Under the pieces are notes generated by a model that worked only from the letters and a program-made list of their open reading frames with translations, was not told the origin of the DNA and ran no database searches. The translations under genes and the position numbers were made by a program. Below, one piece after another: positions 5,974-54,320 of a stretch of DNA of 64,000 bases. Source of the DNA: Escherichia phage vB_EcoM_IME537; the sequence record NC_054921.1; one strand, given 5' to 3'. The stretch's first letter is position 1. Each line of letters begins with the position of its first letter.

Positions 5974-6126
5974 TTAAACCTCAATTGATACATTCATATT
6001 TAACTTGTAACAGTAATAAGCTCCAGCCTAAAATAATAGTTGGAATCATACAAGGAACTGCTACGCTATAGTATATACTTATTATAATCATCAAGATTAA
6101 AAGCAATACTGCTAAAATTTTGCTTT

Positions 6127-6378
6127 TCATTCCTTCTCTCTGATGATAATTACTTGATTTTGCTGTACAGATTTTTTAGTTTCACCCGCAATTGACCAAA
6201 TAAATGTAATAAACCAACCAATGATTGACCAGTTAAACAGTAAAGATGTGAAAAAGATTCCTACTGTCGATTTTGACCCACGCATCAAGGCGATGAACCA
6301 CGGAAGCATGTATATAATAATAGCCAACACACCTGAAACTAAAACCATAAAAATTGAACCTGCTACTAAAGTTTCCAT
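6127..6378 (-). CDS. imm: immunity (superinfection exclusion) membrane protein
   Basis: 83 aa, two hydrophobic segments; size and position between 42 and 43 as in T4. Confidence 0.75.
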   Translation of the reverse strand: METLVAGSIFMVLVSGVLAIIIYMLPWFIALMRGSKSTVGIFFTSLLFNWSIIGWFITFIWSIAGETKKSVQQNQVIIIREKE

Positions 6379-6385
6379 GTTTTCC

Positions 6386-6766
6386 TCACTTAGTCAAATT
6401 TTTTACACATGAATTATAAGAATTTACTACATACTCCATCGGAGCATTTTTACCTGTACGCCATTGGTAATTATTAGCCCAATTTGCCCAAAGTTCAGCG
6501 CAGTAGCTTTCAATTTTTTCTTCACGCGTAATCACATCTGAATTACGATATGCTTGTGCAGATTCATCTGGACGAATAGCTTCGTCAAAATTCGCCTGCA
6601 TTTGTTCTACTGTCTGTTTTGGAGCCTCTTTATAACACTTAACATTAGGATTATAAAATTTGCTTGAACAGTTTACAATTTTTCCTACATCAGACTGATT
6701 TACTACCGGTCCTTGAGCTACACAACCAGTAAGACCCAATGCAATAACCAAAATAGCGATTTTCAT
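6386..6766 (-). CDS. predicted lipoprotein (signal peptide with lipobox LTGC)
   Basis: Start at MKIAILVIALGLTGC; the longer ORF-track start (6877) reads through the upstream promoter cassette and is unlikely to be real. Confidence 0.5.
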   Translation of the reverse strand: MKIAILVIALGLTGCVAQGPVVNQSDVGKIVNCSSKFYNPNVKCYKEAPKQTVEQMQANFDEAIRPDESAQAYRNSDVITREEKIESYCAELWANWANNYQWRTGKNAPMEYVVNSYNSCVKNLTK

Positions 6767-6797
6767 TTCATTCTCCAAATCCGTATCAGTTGATAGT

Positions 6798-6831
6798 TGT
6801 ATAGTACCACGGAAGAACAGAGATGTAAACA
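6798..6831 (-). promoter_or_regulatory. T4-type early promoter cassette (PeSL-like, family A)
   Basis: Minus strand GTTTACatctctgttcttccgtggTACTAT; about 70 bp near-identical to 50505-50585. Confidence 0.55.
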
Positions 6832-6917
6832 GTTTTGTGAAAAAAATTTTTAATGAATTCCAGAGGTCCAGAATCATCTATTTTTCCTAAATATAGATTT
6901 ATATTACTTGTGTGAAA

Positions 6918-6935
6918 AAGGGACCCGGAGGTCCC
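6918..6935 (-). terminator. stem-loop terminator downstream of gene 43
   Basis: agggacccggaggtccct hairpin followed on the minus strand by a T-run. Confidence 0.5.
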
Positions 6936-6948
6936 TAGATTTATTCTA

Positions 6949-22390: not shown

Positions 22391-23680
22391 TGGTGTTTAA
22401 CCCTATGCATGATTTCTTTATTTTTGCCGAGATTAAATCCGCGTTCATTCGGATTTCCCAAATAACCACAAGTTCTTCTTATTGTGTTCATCTTTTTAGG
22501 ATCAGTTTCTCCACAAACAGAACAAACAAATCCGTTTTCAGTAGGAGTCATTTCATGGGTACTTCCGCATGTAAAACATTTATCTACTGGCATATTAACA
22601 CCAAAATAATCTAAATGTTGTGCAGCATAATCCCATACAGCCTCAAGACCTTTTAGGTTATTTTTCATATCAGGAAGTTCAACATAAGAAATGTGACCAC
22701 CTGTCGCAATGAAATGATATGGGGCTTCGCGAGAAATCTTTTCAAACGGAGTAATATTTTCTTCTACTGAAACGTGGAAACTGTTAGTGTACCAGCCTTT
22801 ATCAGTAACATCCTTTACACTTCCATATTTTTCGGTATCAAGTTTACAGAAGCGATAGCACAGGTTTTCAGCAGGTGTAGAATACAAACTAAAAGCAAAA
22901 CCGGTTCTTTCAGTCCACTGCTTAAGATGAGCATTCATTTTAGTTAAAATTTCTTGTCCAATATCACGACCGACAAGAATATTCAATTCGTGAATACCAA
23001 TGTATCCTAAGGACACTGAACTTCTACCGTTTTTAAATAACTCAATTATATCGTCATCAGGTTTAAGACGAACCCCGAATGCGCCTTCTTGGTAAAGAAT
23101 AGGAGCAACAGTAGCTTTAACTCCTTTTAAGGAACTAATTCTACACATCAATGCTTCAAAACATAAATCCATTCGCTCATTGAACAATTCGGCAAATTTC
23201 TGTTCATTGAACTGTGTTCCAATATAAGAATCTAACGCAATGCGAGGAAGATTCAGTGTTACAACACCAAGATTATTACGTCCATCAAGAATTTCATTAC
23301 CAGTCGAATCTTTCCATACACTCAAGAAACTACGACAACCCATTGGAGAAACAGGAATAGATGAACCGGTGATAGCTTTATTGTTCTTAGCCGAAATGAT
23401 GTCAGGATACATTCTTTTGCTTGCACACTCTAGAGCAAGCTGCTTAATATCATAGTTCGGATCGTCTTTATAAAGATTAACACCTTCTTCAACGAACATA
23501 ACAAGTTTAGGGAAAATAGGAGTTATCCCATCACGACCGAGACCTTTAATACGATTTTTCAGAATTGCTTTCTGAATCATTCGTTCAGTCCAGTCAGTTC
23601 CCGTGCCAAATGTAATTGTTACAAAAGGCGTTTGTCCATTAGAGCTGAAAAGTGTATTTACTTCATCATTATATTCAGCA
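22387..23680 (-). CDS. nrdD: anaerobic ribonucleotide reductase NrdD, exon 2 (C-terminal part; 5' boundary approximate)
   Basis: Class III RNR C-terminal region incl. Zn-ribbon cysteines (CFTCGS...CSVCG) and glycyl-radical-type C-terminus; reading frame interrupted upstream by about 1 kb containing a homing endonuclease ORF. Confidence 0.8.
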
Positions 23681-24724
23681 TGAGTCGCAAATTCATGCCC
23701 GTTTATATGAAACAACAAAATTTGGATAGTCCATAGATATGCAACGTTCTTTTATAGTGCTAGGATGAAAATTTAGCGCTTTAGCTGCTTCTATATAAGA
23801 CGTATACTTAATACCGTCAACAACCACATATTCAGGAACTTTATGAATAGTAGTCTTAATACTCAAAACAAGAGGATGAGTTTCGACTTCACTTTCAGTG
23901 CAATTTAAATATTCCGCTGCTTTTTTAAAACTTCTAAAAGTTTTATTTTTAAGCTTTATCGATACTTGTTTTTTACTTTTTCGACTATTGATATTATTTT
24001 GCACATGTTCCTTAGATCTTCCGTTTTTAGCATAATATTCAGCTACAGAAGATTTTATATTGTTTTTATGAGATTCGGATAACACTTTACCCTTATGAGC
24101 ATCTCTTAATTTTTGAATATGTTCTTCAGTATCCGGATGCTTATAAAACTTTTTACCGCCTATGGATTTATTTAAACATTTTTTGCTATAAAAATATTTA
24201 CGTATGACCTCTTCTTCATGTTTTAATGCATCTTTATAACTATCAAATGTTTTTAAAATTATCCATTTAGTAGGTGTATCAGTTTTTAAGCGTTCATTTA
24301 TATACTTAGATGACGTTGTGTAAGTTTTCCAGTTTGTGGGCTTGTTTTTAATTGTTCTAAATTTTTTATAACCGATATAAATGTCGCCATTAGAAAACTT
24401 AACTAAGTATGTAAATGCGTCTTTATCTTTTATTTTAGTACAACGTCTTTTTATCCATTTCATTGTTTCACCTCGTATTCATAAGATAATCTTATTTATA
24501 CAAGATGACTGCTGCATGTCGCCATGCAGATTAGACTATATCTTCATCTTTCGATGCCGGCCGTTTCGAATAGCATTAGCTTCTATTCTACACCGCTACA
24601 TTCATCACGGTTAGTCGTTAGGCATTTAGTTCAAAAGAACATTTAGCACGGGATTGTCTACTAGAGAGGTTCCCCGTTTAGACCGGTTTTACATGAGCCT
24701 GAATTAAATTAACTCATAAGCTTG
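23681..24724 (-). mobile_element. group I self-splicing intron in nrdD (boundaries approximate, +/-20 nt)
   Basis: nrdD split into 181-aa and 443-aa ORFs; intervening GC-richer non-coding core (about 24470-24720) plus GIY-YIG endonuclease ORF; matches the known T4 nrdD (sunY) intron arrangement. Confidence 0.75.
23693..24463 (-). CDS. intron-encoded GIY-YIG homing endonuclease (I-TevII-like)
   Basis: 256 aa; N-terminal GIY-YIG module (FTYLVKFSNGDIYIGYKKF); located inside the nrdD intron. Confidence 0.8.
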   Translation of the reverse strand: MKWIKRRCTKIKDKDAFTYLVKFSNGDIYIGYKKFRTIKNKPTNWKTYTTSSKYINERLKTDTPTKWIILKTFDSYKDALKHEEEVIRKYFYSKKCLNKSIGGKKFYKHPDTEEHIQKLRDAHKGKVLSESHKNNIKSSVAEYYAKNGRSKEHVQNNINSRKSKKQVSIKLKNKTFRSFKKAAEYLNCTESEVETHPLVLSIKTTIHKVPEYVVVDGIKYTSYIEAAKALNFHPSTIKERCISMDYPNFVVSYKRA

Positions 24725-32127: not shown

Positions 32128-32655
32128 TTATGCGAGTACCGTCTTTAACCGTTCTTCAAACTTCCGAAGAGTATTTTGGCGTTCAGCTCTTTGCTTTTTG
32201 TAAGTTTCAATACGCTCTGAAATGAGAGTGTATCGTTCATTTACTGATTCTTTCATAAAATCAGGAATTTCACGAGAAGCTTTAATCTCGTCAAATTTAT
32301 CAATAACAGCTTGCTCTTCAGCAATTAAGTTATCATACATTAAAATATCTTTCTTGATGAACTCAATATCTTCTTGAGTTACACGAGATAATTTAGATGC
32401 TTTATCCTTTTTGTACTGTTCGTTAGTATCACGAGACCAGTGTAATGTACGATTTTTATTCGTATTTTTGTAAATTTCTACAATACCGATCTCATCAATA
32501 ATAACGATCCAATTCCAACGGGATTTGTAAATTTGTCCTCCATCAACAATGATTTCACCTCCGATTGAGATGTCGTTAAAGAACTTGCTTTGTGCTTCAG
32601 ATTTAAATTTACCATCGTTGTAATTTACCAGGTTGAAAATATCTTTAGCGTTCAT
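32128..32655 (-). CDS. hypothetical protein
   Basis: 175 aa ORF directly downstream of an early promoter cassette. Confidence 0.45.
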   Translation of the reverse strand: MNAKDIFNLVNYNDGKFKSEAQSKFFNDISIGGEIIVDGGQIYKSRWNWIVIIDEIGIVEIYKNTNKNRTLHWSRDTNEQYKKDKASKLSRVTQEDIEFIKKDILMYDNLIAEEQAVIDKFDEIKASREIPDFMKESVNERYTLISERIETYKKQRAERQNTLRKFEERLKTVLA

Positions 32656-32681
32656 TTTCTGTTCCTCCGTAGTTGATAGTT

Positions 32682-32714
32682 GTATAGTACCACAGAGGAA
32701 CAGTCTTGTAAACC
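32682..32714 (-). promoter_or_regulatory. T4-type early promoter cassette (family A)
   Basis: Minus strand GTTTACaagactgttcctctgtggTACTAT. Confidence 0.5.
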
Positions 32715-32715
32715 A

Positions 32716-33030
32716 CTAAAAGAAACTTCTTTCACAATTTTTTCCACTGAACCATGCGCTCACTGCTTTCTTAGTCTCAGGAGCAGTGTTATCCATAAAC
32801 CATTCAAAGGCAGCCTTTTTATGATTCTGGAGGGCTTCTCGGGCTTTAATCTGCTCACGGTCTATTAACACTAACATATGAGCCTTTCTTGTCACCATGG
32901 GCTTCTTATGATTTTTTGAATACTCCCAGTCATTTGTCCATCGCATTGTCGTTGCGAACTGAAATACTGCTTCTTTAATTTTAGTTTCGTAAATTTCACG
33001 AGCCTTTGAGTATAACATCACTACCTCCAT
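32716..33030 (-). CDS. hypothetical protein
   Basis: 104 aa ORF. Confidence 0.4.
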   Translation of the reverse strand: MEVVMLYSKAREIYETKIKEAVFQFATTMRWTNDWEYSKNHKKPMVTRKAHMLVLIDREQIKAREALQNHKKAAFEWFMDNTAPETKKAVSAWFSGKNCERSFF

Positions 33031-33100: not shown

Positions 33101-33820
33101 TTAGGATTCTTCTAAATGTCTTTTCTGAAAAGTTGATACCATACTACGATACGGTTCATTTGGATATCCGTGTTTTATAGCTTCCTTTGTAAATTTTCTC
33201 CATCCATATTTAGTTTCTTTCCAAAGCTCGAATAATTCATCTTCATACTGCCATATAGTTAAATGAGAACGCTTTGCAGCTTTAATTCCATTAATATGCT
33301 TTTCTTTTACTGCAGGATTGCTTAGTTTCTTTTTAATAATATTACTAACTTTTCTAACAAAAACTGGGTCCTTATATCGTTGCGAAGTTTTTATTGAAGT
33401 GTTTAATTTAGCTTCCGGCGTGGATGTAACCTCTTTCATCTTTTTCTTCATATGCTGTATATGATTAGGATTTTTCCATAAATTTATAGAATGCTTTTTG
33501 CATTTTATCCTAGTTTCATCTGCAACCTTTCCTCCTTCACCCCCGTATGACAGGTTAACACAGTTTTTTCCATATTTCAATTTACCTGCCATGATATATA
33601 ATATTTCAGCTTGTACCATTTTATCATAATTATCAAAAACTTCTAAAACCGTTTTTGATAATATGTGGTCATTTGACACTTTTACACGTTCTATATAATT
33701 TCCACTACCAACATACGAATCATTGATGTTATTAGTTATATGTCGACCATAATAGTATTTCTTAATACCTGTCTTTAAATTTAATATTTCAGTTTTATAG
33801 ATAGTAAAATATTTTTTCAT
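33101..33820 (-). CDS. free-standing Seg-like GIY-YIG homing endonuclease
   Basis: 239 aa; N-terminal GIY-YIG-like module (YFTIYKTEI...KKYYYGRH...YVGSG) resembling segB in this window; basic C-terminal DNA-binding region. Confidence 0.6.
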   Translation of the reverse strand: MKKYFTIYKTEILNLKTGIKKYYYGRHITNNINDSYVGSGNYIERVKVSNDHILSKTVLEVFDNYDKMVQAEILYIMAGKLKYGKNCVNLSYGGEGGKVADETRIKCKKHSINLWKNPNHIQHMKKKMKEVTSTPEAKLNTSIKTSQRYKDPVFVRKVSNIIKKKLSNPAVKEKHINGIKAAKRSHLTIWQYEDELFELWKETKYGWRKFTKEAIKHGYPNEPYRSMVSTFQKRHLEES

Positions 33821-34797
33821 TTTAATAATACCGTTTCAGCAATTTCTTCCCAACCGTTTTTATCGGTCATAATAAAGTCAGCAAGATAAAGAGCAGTACG
33901 CAGTGAAACATTGCGTAAACGATTAACATTGACTTTCATCCATGATAATGCTTTATAAGTTTCTTCATCAGAAAGACCGCGCTTTTGCATCATGTCGGTT
34001 GAAAGAATAACATCTTCAACCCTGACCATAATTTCTTCATTAGTGTGAACACCCAAATCCAAATAAACTGAGCGGGATACTAATGCTTGTAAATGTGGAG
34101 CAAGTTTAGTACCACGGTCTAATTCGCGGTCAATGTCAACGTTTGTGATAAAAACAATCGTTCCTTTAAATTCAAACTCACGCTCAATGCCTTTTTCTTC
34201 TAAGTAAGAAGATGCAGTGCTCCAGCAGACTTTACGGGTCTCTCCAGTGTCCAGAGCGGCTTTTAGAAGATTAAGAATGTCCATATCAGAGAAAACATCC
34301 ACATCATCAATCAAAAGGACAGAATTCTCTTCACGATTATTCCAAAGTTGTTCATAAAGACCGATACCGGAGATTTTACCGTTAATGCTTTTATATTCAA
34401 TGTATCCATTATCATTTGCTTTATTCAAAGCTTTATCTAAAGAATACGTTTTACCAATACCTGCTGCACCAGAGATAATTAATGAACGAATGTTTCCGTT
34501 AATAATACCATTCGTCATCATTCCCATAACATTAAATCTTTTATTAATGCGGGTTTTCATATCTTCATATGATTCTTTAACTTCTTCAACTTTTACACCA
34601 TCATATGAAATGTCTGATTTGTAAACCCAAACACCGCGACGTTTACCGTCAATTTCAACAAAAACTTTACCATCTCCTTGTGCATCTACCGGAGCATTAT
34701 CTGGGAACCATTCACCTAAGAGCTCAAAAGTTCCAGAGATTTCTTTACCGAAGTAGATACCCTTATTGATAGTTACAGTTTTCATTTTATTCTCCAA
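33817..34797 (-). CDS. P-loop ATPase (AAA+-like)
   Basis: 326 aa; Walker A GAAGIGKT, Walker B VLLIDDVDVF. Confidence 0.55.
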   Translation of the reverse strand: MENKMKTVTINKGIYFGKEISGTFELLGEWFPDNAPVDAQGDGKVFVEIDGKRRGVWVYKSDISYDGVKVEEVKESYEDMKTRINKRFNVMGMMTNGIINGNIRSLIISGAAGIGKTYSLDKALNKANDNGYIEYKSINGKISGIGLYEQLWNNREENSVLLIDDVDVFSDMDILNLLKAALDTGETRKVCWSTASSYLEEKGIEREFEFKGTIVFITNVDIDRELDRGTKLAPHLQALVSRSVYLDLGVHTNEEIMVRVEDVILSTDMMQKRGLSDEETYKALSWMKVNVNRLRNVSLRTALYLADFIMTDKNGWEEIAETVLLK

Positions 34798-34818
34798 TTT
34801 TACATTTGTTTTGATAGG

Positions 34819-34852
34819 GTAATAGTATCACACTACTACCCTGCTGTAAACA
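34819..34852 (-). promoter_or_regulatory. T4-type early promoter cassette (family B)
   Basis: Minus strand GTTTACagcagggtagtagtgtgaTACTAT. Confidence 0.5.
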
Positions 34853-34854
34853 AT

Positions 34855-35118
34855 TTATTTTAATGTTCGCCAAATTTTTACTGCTTCGCGACGAGATACT
34901 TCTACAGCTCCAAGTTCTACAGCTTTTTGGCGTCGCCGAGCGTGTAAGTCATAATGTTTAATGCGTTTATCTTGAAACCAAGAACGTTTCATTCCTATTG
35001 CTTCTGCCATTTCGTGAAGCTCTTCAATATCTCCATCAGTGAACATATGACAATTTTTAGTTGGATGACCGCGAAGTTTCCATCCATGATTCATTAAAAC
35101 ATCTACGTAAACTGTCAT
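34855..35118 (-). CDS. DUF4031-like small protein
   Basis: 87 aa; MTVYVD...CHMF.D...EELH.MA..IG..R.WFQ...HYDL pattern as I recall for DUF4031. Confidence 0.45.
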   Translation of the reverse strand: MTVYVDVLMNHGWKLRGHPTKNCHMFTDGDIEELHEMAEAIGMKRSWFQDKRIKHYDLHARRRQKAVELGAVEVSRREAVKIWRTLK

Positions 35119-35264
35119 TGATTCTTCTCCAAATAAGTTTCGATAATTTTCTGAGCGAGATAAACTGCATTATCTTCAGTTGCATCTTCTAAGAAACTTT
35201 CAAAACACTCTGAAATTTCTTCTGTGTCAATCAACTTTTTTACTTCAATTGGTGTAATTTTCAT
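35115..35264 (-). CDS. hypothetical small protein
   Basis: Track ORF 35115..35333; start moved to MKITPIEVKK downstream of the promoter -10 element. Confidence 0.3.
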   Translation of the reverse strand: MKITPIEVKKLIDTEEISECFESFLEDATEDNAVYLAQKIIETYLEKNQ

Positions 35265-35298
35265 TTTGTTTTTCCGTTTAAGTGTTTGTTTTGATAGT

Positions 35299-35323
35299 TG
35301 TATAGTACCATAAGCCCGAAGGC
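35299..35323 (-). promoter_or_regulatory. promoter -10-like element fused to a UUCG hairpin (partial cassette)
   Basis: gttgtatagtacca family-A -10 segment followed by agcccgaaggct hairpin; no GTTTAC -35. Confidence 0.3.
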
Positions 35324-35329
35324 TCCCTA

Positions 35330-36343
35330 TCATTTATAATAACTTCGGTGGTTTTCAAGATAGACCTTCTCAAGGAAGTCATCCCAGAAACTCATGTCTA
35401 CTGTTTTAGGCATACCGTTCTTAGAAGCTTCAGTAGATGCTGCTTCTACTTGATCGACCACATCTTCCAAAAACTCTTGAACCGTTTTAAATGGATGTTT
35501 ACCCAACTTCACGTCAAGAATAAATGGAGCGTCTTGAAGTGGATAAACCAAGTCACCAGTTTTGTAAATTTCCAATAGTTGAAGTCCACCACGACAAGCA
35601 TGGCTCAGAGCTTTCCAGTCAATACCTTCGTTGGCTTCGGCCTTACGGGCACGTTCACCATATTCAGCATCTAATTTGTTCAGTGACTGCTTAAGCTCAA
35701 TAAGAGAAAGCGTTGTCTGATATTTACGACCCAACACAGTGTAGAACATTTGCGGGCCTGTTTTCTCATAATTATGGAACACCCATTCACAGAACTCGTT
35801 TTCTGGAAGACGATGCTTAATATCTTCAACTTTAGTGCGACGAAGTCTATCAGGGATTCCTTCTTGATAGTCGACCCACTGGTCAGGGATTTGATTAACT
35901 ACTTTCAATACATCACGTAATGCGGCCAAACGAGAACCCTTGACACCGTATTTAGAAGCTTGCTTACGGACATATCCTAAATAGGATTTCATGTTAGTCG
36001 TATAAAAACGAGAACGGTTGTCTTGAATAAACTTCCACACATCAGGCAAATCAGATTTAACCACTAGCTCAGGTGGAGTGTGAAGCATATCTAATGCTAC
36101 AGTTTCACCATCTGCTGCTAATTTAAAGAAATACTTAAGACTGTATAGTTCATGGTCAATATCATCTTTAGTGTTTTTAGATGATGTGTTGTTAGTGTTT
36201 TTACTCATGTGCTCTTTAACGTTTCCAATAAGAATATCACGAGCAGGAGGAACAAAGATTTCTTTAAAATCTACATCAGATTCTGGTGTAGAAGTTCCAT
36301 AAAGATGACTACCAAAATAACTTTTCATTACTGTTTTCATCAT
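35330..36343 (-). CDS. putative nucleotidyltransferase (Pol-beta superfamily-like)
   Basis: 337 aa; N-terminal GS...G.S..SDVDF motif (YFGSHLYGTSTPESDVDFKEIF) followed by a helical domain. Confidence 0.45.
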   Translation of the reverse strand: MMKTVMKSYFGSHLYGTSTPESDVDFKEIFVPPARDILIGNVKEHMSKNTNNTSSKNTKDDIDHELYSLKYFFKLAADGETVALDMLHTPPELVVKSDLPDVWKFIQDNRSRFYTTNMKSYLGYVRKQASKYGVKGSRLAALRDVLKVVNQIPDQWVDYQEGIPDRLRRTKVEDIKHRLPENEFCEWVFHNYEKTGPQMFYTVLGRKYQTTLSLIELKQSLNKLDAEYGERARKAEANEGIDWKALSHACRGGLQLLEIYKTGDLVYPLQDAPFILDVKLGKHPFKTVQEFLEDVVDQVEAASTEASKNGMPKTVDMSFWDDFLEKVYLENHRSYYK

Positions 36344-49592: not shown

Positions 49593-49635
49593 AGTATTTC
49601 CTTAGGTTAATTGAGATTTAAAATCTGCGGAAGAA

Positions 49636-50221: not shown

Positions 50222-50485
50222 TTATTTCATATTATTGAAATATTCTTCTGCGATTTCGTCGTTATCATGGTAAACTTTAGAAGACAGTTTAACATAACCT
50301 TCAGCAGTGAACATGTTAATCACAACCTTTACAGTATACCACTGACCGTCTTCATTACCCATTACTGCATAAGTTTCAAACATCGGATGGTCAGGACCGA
50401 TAACTTTAATATCATTCACTGTACGACCGAAATCTTCTGAAACACATTTCATAAAGAAGTTGAACAGTTCGCCGTAATTATCCAT
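50222..50485 (-). CDS. hypothetical small acidic protein
   Basis: Start at MDNYGELF; the longer track ORF (to 50680) reads through the upstream promoter cassette. Confidence 0.4.
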   Translation of the reverse strand: MDNYGELFNFFMKCVSEDFGRTVNDIKVIGPDHPMFETYAVMGNEDGQWYTVKVVINMFTAEGYVKLSSKVYHDNDEIAEEYFNNMK

Positions 50486-50524
50486 TTCATTCTCCAAGTT
50501 GTTTTCTGTATCAGTAGTTGATAG

Positions 50525-50558
50525 TTGTATAGTACCATGGAAGAACAGAGATGTAAAC
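50525..50558 (-). promoter_or_regulatory. T4-type early promoter cassette (family A; near-duplicate of 6798-6831)
   Basis: Minus strand GTTTACatctctgttcttccatggTACTAT. Confidence 0.55.
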
Positions 50559-50699
50559 AGTTTTGTGAAAAAAAAAAATTTTAAAAAGTTTTGGGGAATT
50601 CTAGGGCAGGGAGGGGCAATTAAAAGATAGGATAATATATTATAAAGGGTATAAACTAAATGATGCCTAGAGAGGTCCAAAAAGGCCTAGATACCAAAA

Positions 50700-50726
50700 A
50701 GCCCCAACCTTTCGGCTGGGGCTAAG
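50700..50726 (-). terminator. rho-independent terminator
   Basis: gccccaacctttcggctggggc hairpin followed by TTTTT on the minus strand. Confidence 0.6.
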
Positions 50727-50730
50727 AATG

Positions 50731-51204
50731 TTATTTAATTTGTTTAGCAGACCAAATGCGGTCTTTGATAATTTTTTGGATGTCTTCAACATACTCAAGA
50801 GAGTGAGCATGCGGGTTATCTTTGAAACTATAAGCACGAGCTAACTTTTGGCCTTCAGTTTTGATTACTAAAAGCTCTTTAAGGATAGCTTCATATTTAG
50901 AAATAATTCCTTTAACAATATTTTTTTCTTGTGCAGCTTTAGGATCTGCTTTAGGAGCAGGTTTACCCGAAGCCTTTGCAAAAGCAGCGCCAGTAGCAAC
51001 TAAACTTTTCCAGGCCATACTAACTGCATTTCCCGTAAATCCTTCTGCTTTCATGTCGCGAGCAAACTGGAATCGTGATTCGTCAGAAGCATCTTTATAG
51101 GAATATTTACCCGCTGCAATGGCTGCTTTTGCGACAGCTTGAATTTCGGTGCTAGATGCTTCATTTAACACCGCTTCATTTAAAAATTGAGCATATGATT
51201 TCAT
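50731..51204 (-). CDS. hypothetical protein with variant capsid-targeting-like leader
   Basis: 157 aa; N-terminus MKSYAQFLNEA resembles the MKTYQEFIAEA internal-protein leader; Ala/Lys-rich. Confidence 0.4.
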   Translation of the reverse strand: MKSYAQFLNEAVLNEASSTEIQAVAKAAIAAGKYSYKDASDESRFQFARDMKAEGFTGNAVSMAWKSLVATGAAFAKASGKPAPKADPKAAQEKNIVKGIISKYEAILKELLVIKTEGQKLARAYSFKDNPHAHSLEYVEDIQKIIKDRIWSAKQIK

Positions 51205-51253
51205 CTTATTTCCTGTTCTAATTCGTGGATTTAATATATTATATTTATACTAA

Positions 51254-51280
51254 AAAGCCCCAACCTTTCGGTCGGGGCTA
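51254..51280 (-). terminator. rho-independent terminator (near-duplicate of 50700-50726)
   Basis: gccccaacctttcggtcggggc hairpin followed by TTTTT on the minus strand. Confidence 0.6.
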
Positions 51281-51284
51281 AGCC

Positions 51285-54286: not shown

Positions 54287-54320
54287 GTAATAGTATCACT
54301 ACCCTATCTAAAAGTAAACT
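54287..54320 (-). promoter_or_regulatory. T4-type early promoter cassette (family B)
   Basis: Minus strand GTTTACttttagatagggtagtgaTACTAT. Confidence 0.5.

Follow-up and report, generated by a model that had tools for sequence, protein, structure and literature searches.

In a 64,000-nucleotide stretch of the genome of Escherichia phage vB_EcoM_IME537 (NC_054921.1; hereafter, the window), a promoter-containing sequence occurs in four copies, two of which are near-identical. We conclude that this cassette very probably represents an 'A' sub-family of the T-even early promoters, forming a complete expression unit of ~105 bp, and that it works in the way proposed below. Both this class of cassette and its likely role as a point of recombination have already been described, and the cassettes are thus ordinary, known biology. 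The window is from a Tequatrovirus, with 95-98% identity to many T4-like coliphages; its gene order is colinear with T4 at ~24-74 kb, and the minus strand carries essentially all of the genes. The positions of the four copies and of neighboring features are listed in Table 1.

Table 1. Family-A cassettes and neighboring features in the window
Feature	Position	Strand	Description
Family-A cassette copy 1 (imm.1)	6764..6868	-	TTTACA-17-TACTAT with TG; aligned with T4, RB32, HY01, ZN18
Copy 1 UP region	~6830-6855	-	A/T-rich
Copy 1 -35	6830-6824	-	G+TTTACA, then 17-bp spacer
Copy 1 extended -10	TGG 6809-6807, TACTAT 6806-6801	-	
Copy 1 start block	SD GGAG 6776-6773, ATG 6766-6764	-	
imm.1	6386..6766	-	Gene behind copy 1; 126 aa, lipoprotein-like N-terminus, DUF5481
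Gene 43 terminator hairpin	6914..6936	-	AGGGACCTCCGGGTCCCT + TTTTT, stem 6919-6936
Family-A cassette copy 2 (e.8)	50483..50610	-	
Copy 2 -35	50557-50552	-	TTTACA
Copy 2 -10	50534-50529	-	TACTAT, TGG ahead
Copy 2 start block	SD GGAG 50495-50492, ATG 50485-50483	-	
e.8	50222..50485	-	Gene behind copy 2; 87 aa, unknown function
Terminator hairpin upstream of copy 2	50691..50726	-	Stem 50700-50723
Terminator repeat, second copy	51247..51282	-	3' end of rnaC-like RNA region
Family-A cassette copy 3 (nrdC.8)	32655..32740	-	Within nrdC.9 3' end (last codons)
Copy 3 -35 and -10	-35 32712-32707; -10 32689-32684	-	
Copy 4	35291..35329	-	Degraded hybrid, between nrdC.11 and 49-aa ORF
Module inserted relative to T4/RB32	34855..35264	-	49-aa ORF 35115..35264 and 87-aa DUF4031 ORF 34855..35118
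Family-B early promoter for nrdC.10	34786..34860	-	-35 34850-34845; -10 34827-34822

A comparison of the window with itself revealed that the sequence at 6788-6846 (copy 1) is identical to that at 50516-50574 (copy 2) at 58 of 59 positions (blastn-short E 1e-26). A second exact block, a 15-mer covering the SD and the start codon, lies at 6764-6778 and 50483-50497, and when three small indels are allowed for, the homology runs for ~105 bp, from a GAATTC (at ~6863 and ~50605) to the ATG. The original prediction, that 6781-6855 and 50505-50585 are near-identical, was therefore borne out, and the shorter copies that it placed at 32663-32714 and 35290-35320 proved to be real: copy 3 matches over 32671-32703 (31 of 33 nucleotides identical) and copy 4 over 35291-35311 (21 of 21). 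The repeats found in this self-alignment, which had been suggested as a check, are significant beyond the promoter hexamers. On the minus strand of the window, 18 early-promoter-like sites have a mean in-register identity of 49% (sd 7%). The pair formed by copies 1 and 2 is the top outlier among them, with 84% over 70 ungapped nucleotides, which is far above the mean; the similarity of the two therefore exceeds what promoter hexamers alone contribute. All four copies share a single orientation, along early transcription. The promoters stand 25-45 nt 5' of an SD and ATG, which were found in four copies out of four, and each copy lies, as had been claimed, directly 5' of an accessory ORF. The genes downstream belong to families of unknown function throughout.

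On the minus strand, copies 1 and 2 read, in order, GAATTC, the A/T tract TAAAAATTTTTTTCACAAAAC, (G)TTTACA, 17 bp, TGG-TACTAT, ACAACTATCAAC, a leader, and TTGGAGAATGAAATG. The A/T-rich tract of the family reads TAAAAATTTTTTCACAAAAC; its start region, ACAACTATCAAC, is followed by a leader of 25-35 nt and then by the SD/start block GGAGAAUGAAAUG, and GGAGAATGAAATG, which comprises the SD and the start, is common to copies 1 and 2 (15/15). The TAAAAATTTTTTTCACAAAAC tract precedes the -35 element of copies 1 and 2, while copy 3 has a weaker UP element and copy 4 has none. A consensus scan called promoters at 6829..6801 (copy 1), 50557..50529 (copy 2), and 32712..32684 (copy 3), in each case with a TG ahead of the -10 element, and called no promoter at copy 4 (35291-35311), where the -10 element is present and the -35 element is absent. 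GTTTAC and TACTAT, which had been ascribed to every copy, thus occur together in copies 1-3, but not in copy 4, which lacks the -35 element and the A/T tract. The spacer, originally given as 18 bp, is the conventional 17 bp once TTTACA is taken to be the -35 hexamer. The cassettes had also been expected to create artefactual N-terminal ORF extensions, and three of them do: the mechanically called ORF 6386..6877 (163 aa) is imm.1 (126 aa) extended through its promoter, ORF 50222..50680 (152 aa) is an extension of e.8 (87 aa), and ORF 35115..35333 (72 aa), at copy 4, is an extension of the 49-aa ORF. Copy 3 is the exception, since the overlap there is with the genuine 3' end of nrdC.9.

Early promoters of T4 consist of UP, -35, TGn, and -10 elements with extra consensus regions (PMC2988021, Hinton 2010 review), and the consensus of PST/T4 promoter/stem-loop elements (PeSLs) is TTTACW-N17-TAYWAT, with AT-rich sequence upstream and an SD and ATG downstream (PMC4122927, Comeau et al. 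2014). The features of early promoters (-35 and -10 elements at 17 +/- 1 bp, TGn, position, and orthology) were found in copies 1-3. The anatomy, which fits TTTACW-N17-TAYWAT with an A/T tract, SD, and ATG, supports the reading of the repeat as a PeSL-type early-promoter cassette. The 18 promoters of the window yield the consensus GTTTAC...TGTGaTAttAT..cctATcaa, which covers much of the family-A core; the 'invariant' core is therefore largely the consensus of the class. The spacer segment GTTCTTCC(A/G)TGG is invariant at two loci, and its invariance is not accounted for by known sigma-70 contacts. In U76612.1, an older and partial T4 record, a terminator and -35 and -10 elements, labelled 'early promoter 54.4', are annotated at the cassette in front of nrdC.10, and -35/-10 signals are annotated at the nrdC.8 cassette. 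A promoter is annotated at the imm.1-side cassette in the record of phage Lutter. No promoter features were present in the stretches examined of the complete T4 records NC_000866 and AF158101, and a literature search for T4 transcription-start data covering imm.1 gave nothing usable.

Copy 1 is located between the terminator of gene 43 and imm.1. This terminator lies ~90 bp 5' of the copy 1 -35 element and does not abut the cassette; the orthologous site carries a 'terminator' annotation in phages NBG2 and Lutter. The terminator upstream of copy 2 is ~143 bp away. Inside copies 1 and 2, no stem-loop beyond those of shuffled controls was found (z -0.18 and -0.37), and a 5'-terminal 5-bp hairpin, UAUCA...UGAUA, was not significant. 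The interval that separates copy 1 from the gene 43 terminator contains, at 6886-6912 on the minus strand, the motif TATAAATC, which matches seven of the eight positions of the late-promoter sequence TATAAATA, and a second promoter is annotated at this position in the Lutter record. It may be that imm.1 owns an additional, later-acting promoter there. Nearby, between imm and gene 42, there is a 49-aa hydrophobic ORF (5981-6130, minus strand), which is named 42.1 in RB32 and is unannotated in the T4 reference record.

Other early promoters of the window fall into families B and C. In these (-10 elements at 54290, 54918, 34822, 50192, 850, 1338, and 38461; minus strand), the spacer pairs with the first ~10 transcribed bases, which places the -10 element in the loop of a hairpin, and the arms vary between copies yet stay complementary. 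The hairpins that were folded, at 54290 and 54918, had z values of -3.1 and -4.0. Stem-loops that overlap the -10 element in RB49/phi1 are mentioned in the PeSL papers. At T-even IP loci, repeated promoter-containing intergenic motifs have been described (Repoila et al. 1994, as summarised in PMC2839356). The IP locus of the window has family-B promoters at 54290, 54588, and 54918, two of which drive IP-like genes and one a 61-aa ORF.

In copy 3, the spacer (32703-32689) can pair with the SD region (32673-32659) to give a 15-bp hairpin with the -10 element in its loop (-28 kcal/mol, z -4.5; no T-run). Because the copy 3 spacer is complementary to the SD, RNA reading through from nrdC.9 would, as judged from folding, bury the nrdC.8 SD in this hairpin, while RNA begun at copy 3's own promoter would miss the 5' arm and leave the SD free. 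The stem is invariant and so has no covariation support. According to one interpretation, family A, through its invariant start region and spacer, marks a co-regulated immediate-early subset of genes that has an input of its own (for instance, the shut-off of early promoters or selective stimulation by Alt), and its nrdC.8 variant acts as an early-promoter translational gate. We regard this as doubtful. If it were true, gating of an SD by promoter choice, in T4 so far a matter of late promoters only, would extend to early promoters.

A related possibility is that family A constitutes a dedicated regulon, with the 20-mer TGGTACTATACAACTATCAA or the spacer GTTCTTCCATGG as a candidate operator. 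Possible inputs are the activity that shuts off early promoters, stimulation dependent on Alt, and MotB; published accounts give no mechanism for the shut-off and describe Alt as acting on some early promoters only, through undefined positions (PMC2988021, PMC3014915). The 20-mer is exact at the cassette loci of T4, RB32, HY01, and ZN18, and at 19 of the 21 sites found within three mismatches in five genomes, despite flanking spacers that vary by locus. In a search that started from the exact 20-mer itself, it lay 5' of at least eight different genes across Tequatrovirus contigs; in IMG/VR contigs it fronts at least four genes beyond those of the cassette loci. However, much of the 20-mer (TG-n-TAxxAT...CTATCAA) is the consensus of all 18 promoters, families B and C included, and neither a candidate binding protein nor a palindrome was found. 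We consider a dedicated regulon quite unlikely, and retain the view of family A as an early-promoter sub-family.

The four window copies sit at sites that are orthologous in T4, RB32, HY01, and ZN18, and IMG/VR contigs also carry the cassettes at these loci; T4 itself has the cassette at imm.1, e.8, and nrdC.8, plus a fourth complete copy 5' of nrdC.10. A search with the 105-bp cassette returned 3497 places in 544 phage records, or ~6-8 per genome, and all of the cassette-bearing records are from T4-like phages of enterobacteria. Over a 53-nt core, the imm.1 and e.8 cassettes differ by a mean of 3.29 mismatches within genomes (n=7) and by 3.26 between genomes; mismatches range from 1 to 6, and the window, with a single one, is at the low end. 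When cassettes are compared over their full length, identity is 88% for orthologues and 69% for paralogues, and variation is restricted to the 6-7 nt immediately 3' of the -35 element. By these sequence comparisons, copies 1 and 2 are paralogues of ancient origin whose positions are conserved between orthologues, and their identity at 58 of 59 positions is no sign of recent duplication. Since mismatches within and between genomes are equally frequent, recent duplication was rejected as the principal reason for the identity.

One could also suppose that gene conversion between paralogous cassettes, continuing within each genome (concerted evolution), keeps copies 1 and 2 near-identical. At the imm.1 locus, the variable block has two alleles, each of which resembles the block of another locus: AAGACTG (T4, RB32, and two IMG/VR contigs) is nrdC.8-like, and ATCYCYG (the window, HY01, and ZN18) is e.8-like. 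In addition, one contig joins a T4-type upstream flank to an e.8-type block, and several loci have a CTA/ACT indel of the leader in common. These observations would favor conversion, but the core mismatches within and between genomes and the greater identity of orthologues over full cassettes leave room for rare historical exchanges at most, and no within-genome homogenisation of the copies was found over the 53-nt core in seven genomes. The two imm.1-locus alleles are compatible with such rare exchange and not with ongoing homogenisation, and we judge gene conversion to be decidedly improbable as the cause. The notion of a small mobile element (MITE-like, or recently transposed or duplicated) that has spread in the genome as the cassette has next to no likelihood and was rejected: the dispersed copies do have sharp boundaries, and in one IMG/VR contig (L026) an nrdC.8-type cassette, SD included, fronts an unrelated 37-aa ORF, but the four sites are orthologous to those in T4, RB32, HY01, and ZN18, terminal inverted repeats and target-site duplications are absent around the cassette, its orientation is single, and it has no linked transposase or endonuclease. 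Ancient paralogy of conserved early promoters is thus the reading that we adopt.

The degraded copy 4 lies at the nrdC.11|nrdC.10 junction, for which four states are known across the relatives compared. In T4 and RB32, the family-A cassette is intact and there is no insert. The T4 nrdC.10 cassette is complete, consisting of a terminator (GGGAGCCTTCGGGCTCCC-T7), the UP element, GTTTAC, TGGTACTAT, and GGAGAATAAAATG, and the T4/RB32/HY01 orthologue is canonical in that its UP element is directly abutted by the terminator. In HY01, a promoter-ORF161-terminator module has been placed at the T-tract of the terminator. At an IMG/VR locus (L021), ORF49 and ORF87 follow an A cassette that is intact, and the sequence changes over precisely at CTATCAA|AACAAAC. 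Finally, the window and ZN18 have the L021-type insert together with a 52-bp deletion that took the T-tract, the UP element, the -35 element, and most of the spacer, and the terminator stem is now fused to TATGG-TACTAT. Copy 4 of the window accordingly joins the stem of the nrdC.11 terminator (35325-35312, without a T-run) to TGG-TACTAT-ACAACTATCAA (35310-35291), and past CTATCAA the leader becomes that of family B (AACAAAC...). The family-B promoter at nrdC.10 takes the place of T4's family-A cassette and delimits the inserted module on its right-hand side. The left crossover of copy 4 is exactly at CTATCAA, and the 52-bp deletion came afterwards, which supports PeSL-type shuffling at the level of the junction.

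A comparison of two IMG/VR loci (L016 and L017), together with the window at 35291-35329, revealed deletion of the T-tract, UP element, and -35 element at two separate loci in a ZN18-type genome, each of which now has a terminator stem joined directly to the spacer/-10. Recurrent deletion of this kind would turn 'terminate and restart' into read-through. Between nrdC.10 and nrdC.9, the window has an ORF for a seg-like GIY-YIG endonuclease (33101-33820, minus strand) that is absent from T4 and HY01, and its nrdD contains a 1047-bp insertion (23666-24714) relative to HY01, ZN18, and RB32. The latter is presumably an I-TevII-type intron, which is also in T4. Both are typical homing-element polymorphisms.

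Exchanges of modules at promoters were also seen elsewhere. In relatives, modules have been inserted or replaced through crossovers between the -10 element and the SD/ATG or in the adjoining terminator or T-tract. A 267-bp ORF is inserted in front of imm.1 in HY01 and ZN18, at the cassette sequence ATGAAAAT; the limits of the e.7 replacement are the promoters at 49635 and 50192; and indels at the IP locus end 9-11 bp from -10 hexamers. The positions of these junctions appear to fit the PeSL model, which they support without extending it. Terminators are involved as well: 36-bp direct repeats (50691-50726 and 51247-51282; 92%) bracket the insertion of ORF157, which is absent from T4, and a note at this ORF in the RB32 GenBank record reads 'flanked by 34 bp imperfect direct repeat'. 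The N-terminus of the 157-aa product (50731-51204, minus strand), MKSYAQFLNEA, resembles the capsid-targeting sequence MKTYQEFIAEA of IPII/IPIII, and the ORF is preceded by the late-promoter-like TATAAATA. It is probably an additional internal-protein gene, inserted through recombination in the terminator.

To determine whether indels are concentrated at early promoters in general, the window was compared with T4, HY01, ZN18, and RB32 by chained blastn (a comparison of ~50 kb), which yielded 22 variable sites. Five of these are within 75 bp of an early promoter. This number is significant against a uniform null (P 0.007), but no enrichment was found over a gene-boundary null (5/22; P 0.36-0.9), about one in five gene boundaries having an early promoter. 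The remaining indels are for the most part insertions of homing endonucleases or introns, or bear no relation to promoters. A general enrichment of breakpoints at early promoters, significant against the uniform null only, was rejected. The modular gene shuffling that had been suggested for the cassettes is thus supported at single junctions (nrdC.11|nrdC.10, imm.1, e.7, and the IP locus) and not by an excess of indels over that expected from gene boundaries.

With respect to function, we infer the following course of events from the anatomy of the cassettes. The A/T tract TAAAAATTTTTTCACAAAAC would act as an UP element for the alpha C-terminal domains of RNA polymerase, and, from established T4 biology, the unmodified host sigma-70 polymerase would fire the cassettes immediately after infection, so that each accessory gene (imm.1, e.8, and nrdC.8, as well as nrdC.10 in T4) would receive an immediate-early transcript of its own. 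The consensus of strong RegB/S1 cleavage sites is GG*AGRAYARAA (PMC3014915), and the shared SD GGAGAAUGAAA (GGAGAAUAAAA in T4) fits it. Messages from the cassettes would therefore probably be inactivated by RegB, within minutes. At the DNA level, the phage recombination system would use the cassettes as patches of homology, since each genome has 6-8 stretches of 50-105 bp that are near-identical in sequence.

Recognition of the cassette corrects three over-extended ORF calls in the window, and the true start codons and the predicted immediate-early class follow for imm.1, e.8, nrdC.8, and the 49-aa ORF. The window also supplies base-resolved examples of module exchange at promoter and terminator homology, among them the four-state nrdC.11|nrdC.10 series, and these include a secondary deletion that joined a terminator stem to a -10 element. 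No long-standing question is made newly testable by these cassettes.

The predicted copy 3 gate can be compared with those of T4 e, soc, 49, and I-TevI (PMC3014915), in which, as in copy 3, the SD is in the 3' arm of a hairpin and the promoter is inside it. The T4 gates delay expression by means of late promoters, whereas the promoter internal to copy 3 is early; furthermore, the copy 3 gate is a prediction from folding only, unlike the T4 ones. The motifs of IP loci are repeats of T4-type early promoters beside small, highly variable genes, and family B of the window is likewise; family A is a separate sequence sub-family and does not occur at IP loci.

Compared with T4 early promoters as a class, family A has the same UP element, GTTTAC -35 element, 17-bp spacing, TGn and TAxxAT, and conserved positions flanking the start. 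Like family-A cassettes, the T4 early promoters stand before early non-essential genes on the early-transcribed strand. Nothing essential differs between the two; what family A shares beyond the class consensus is ~105 bp that include the spacer, leader, SD, and ATG (imm.1/e.8). As to PeSLs (PMC2839356, PMC4122927), these join an A/T tract and an early promoter to an SD and a start codon (ATG), and are repeats of hyperplastic regions, as family A is. Their stem-loop is contiguous, whereas copies 1 and 2 lack one and have terminators 90-143 bp upstream; the term 'early promoter' therefore fits these copies better than a strict composite PeSL. In copy 3, the stem-loop is formed by the spacer and the SD and lacks a T-run, unlike the PeSL norm, and in copy 4, the stem abuts the -10 element, is truncated, and is without a T-run. 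The mini-circles mapped for RB49 (PMC2839356, Arbiol et al. 2010, on RB49/phi1) are not known from T-evens or from the present phage, and enrichment at indels beyond the gene-boundary expectation was not found in the present window; PeSLs of the nt-1/KVP40 pair are also treated by Comeau et al. 2014 (PMC4122927). On the other side of the comparison, PeSL systems contain 'half' or degraded elements beside indels, and copy 4 is alike, and the crossovers of RB49 mini-circles (PMC2839356), which map between the -10 element and the ATG or to the terminator/AT-rich region, are at the same positions as those described here. Taken from the sequences, this comparison supports the placement of family A among the T-even PeSLs sensu Comeau et al. 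2014, with a stem-loop component that is atypical.
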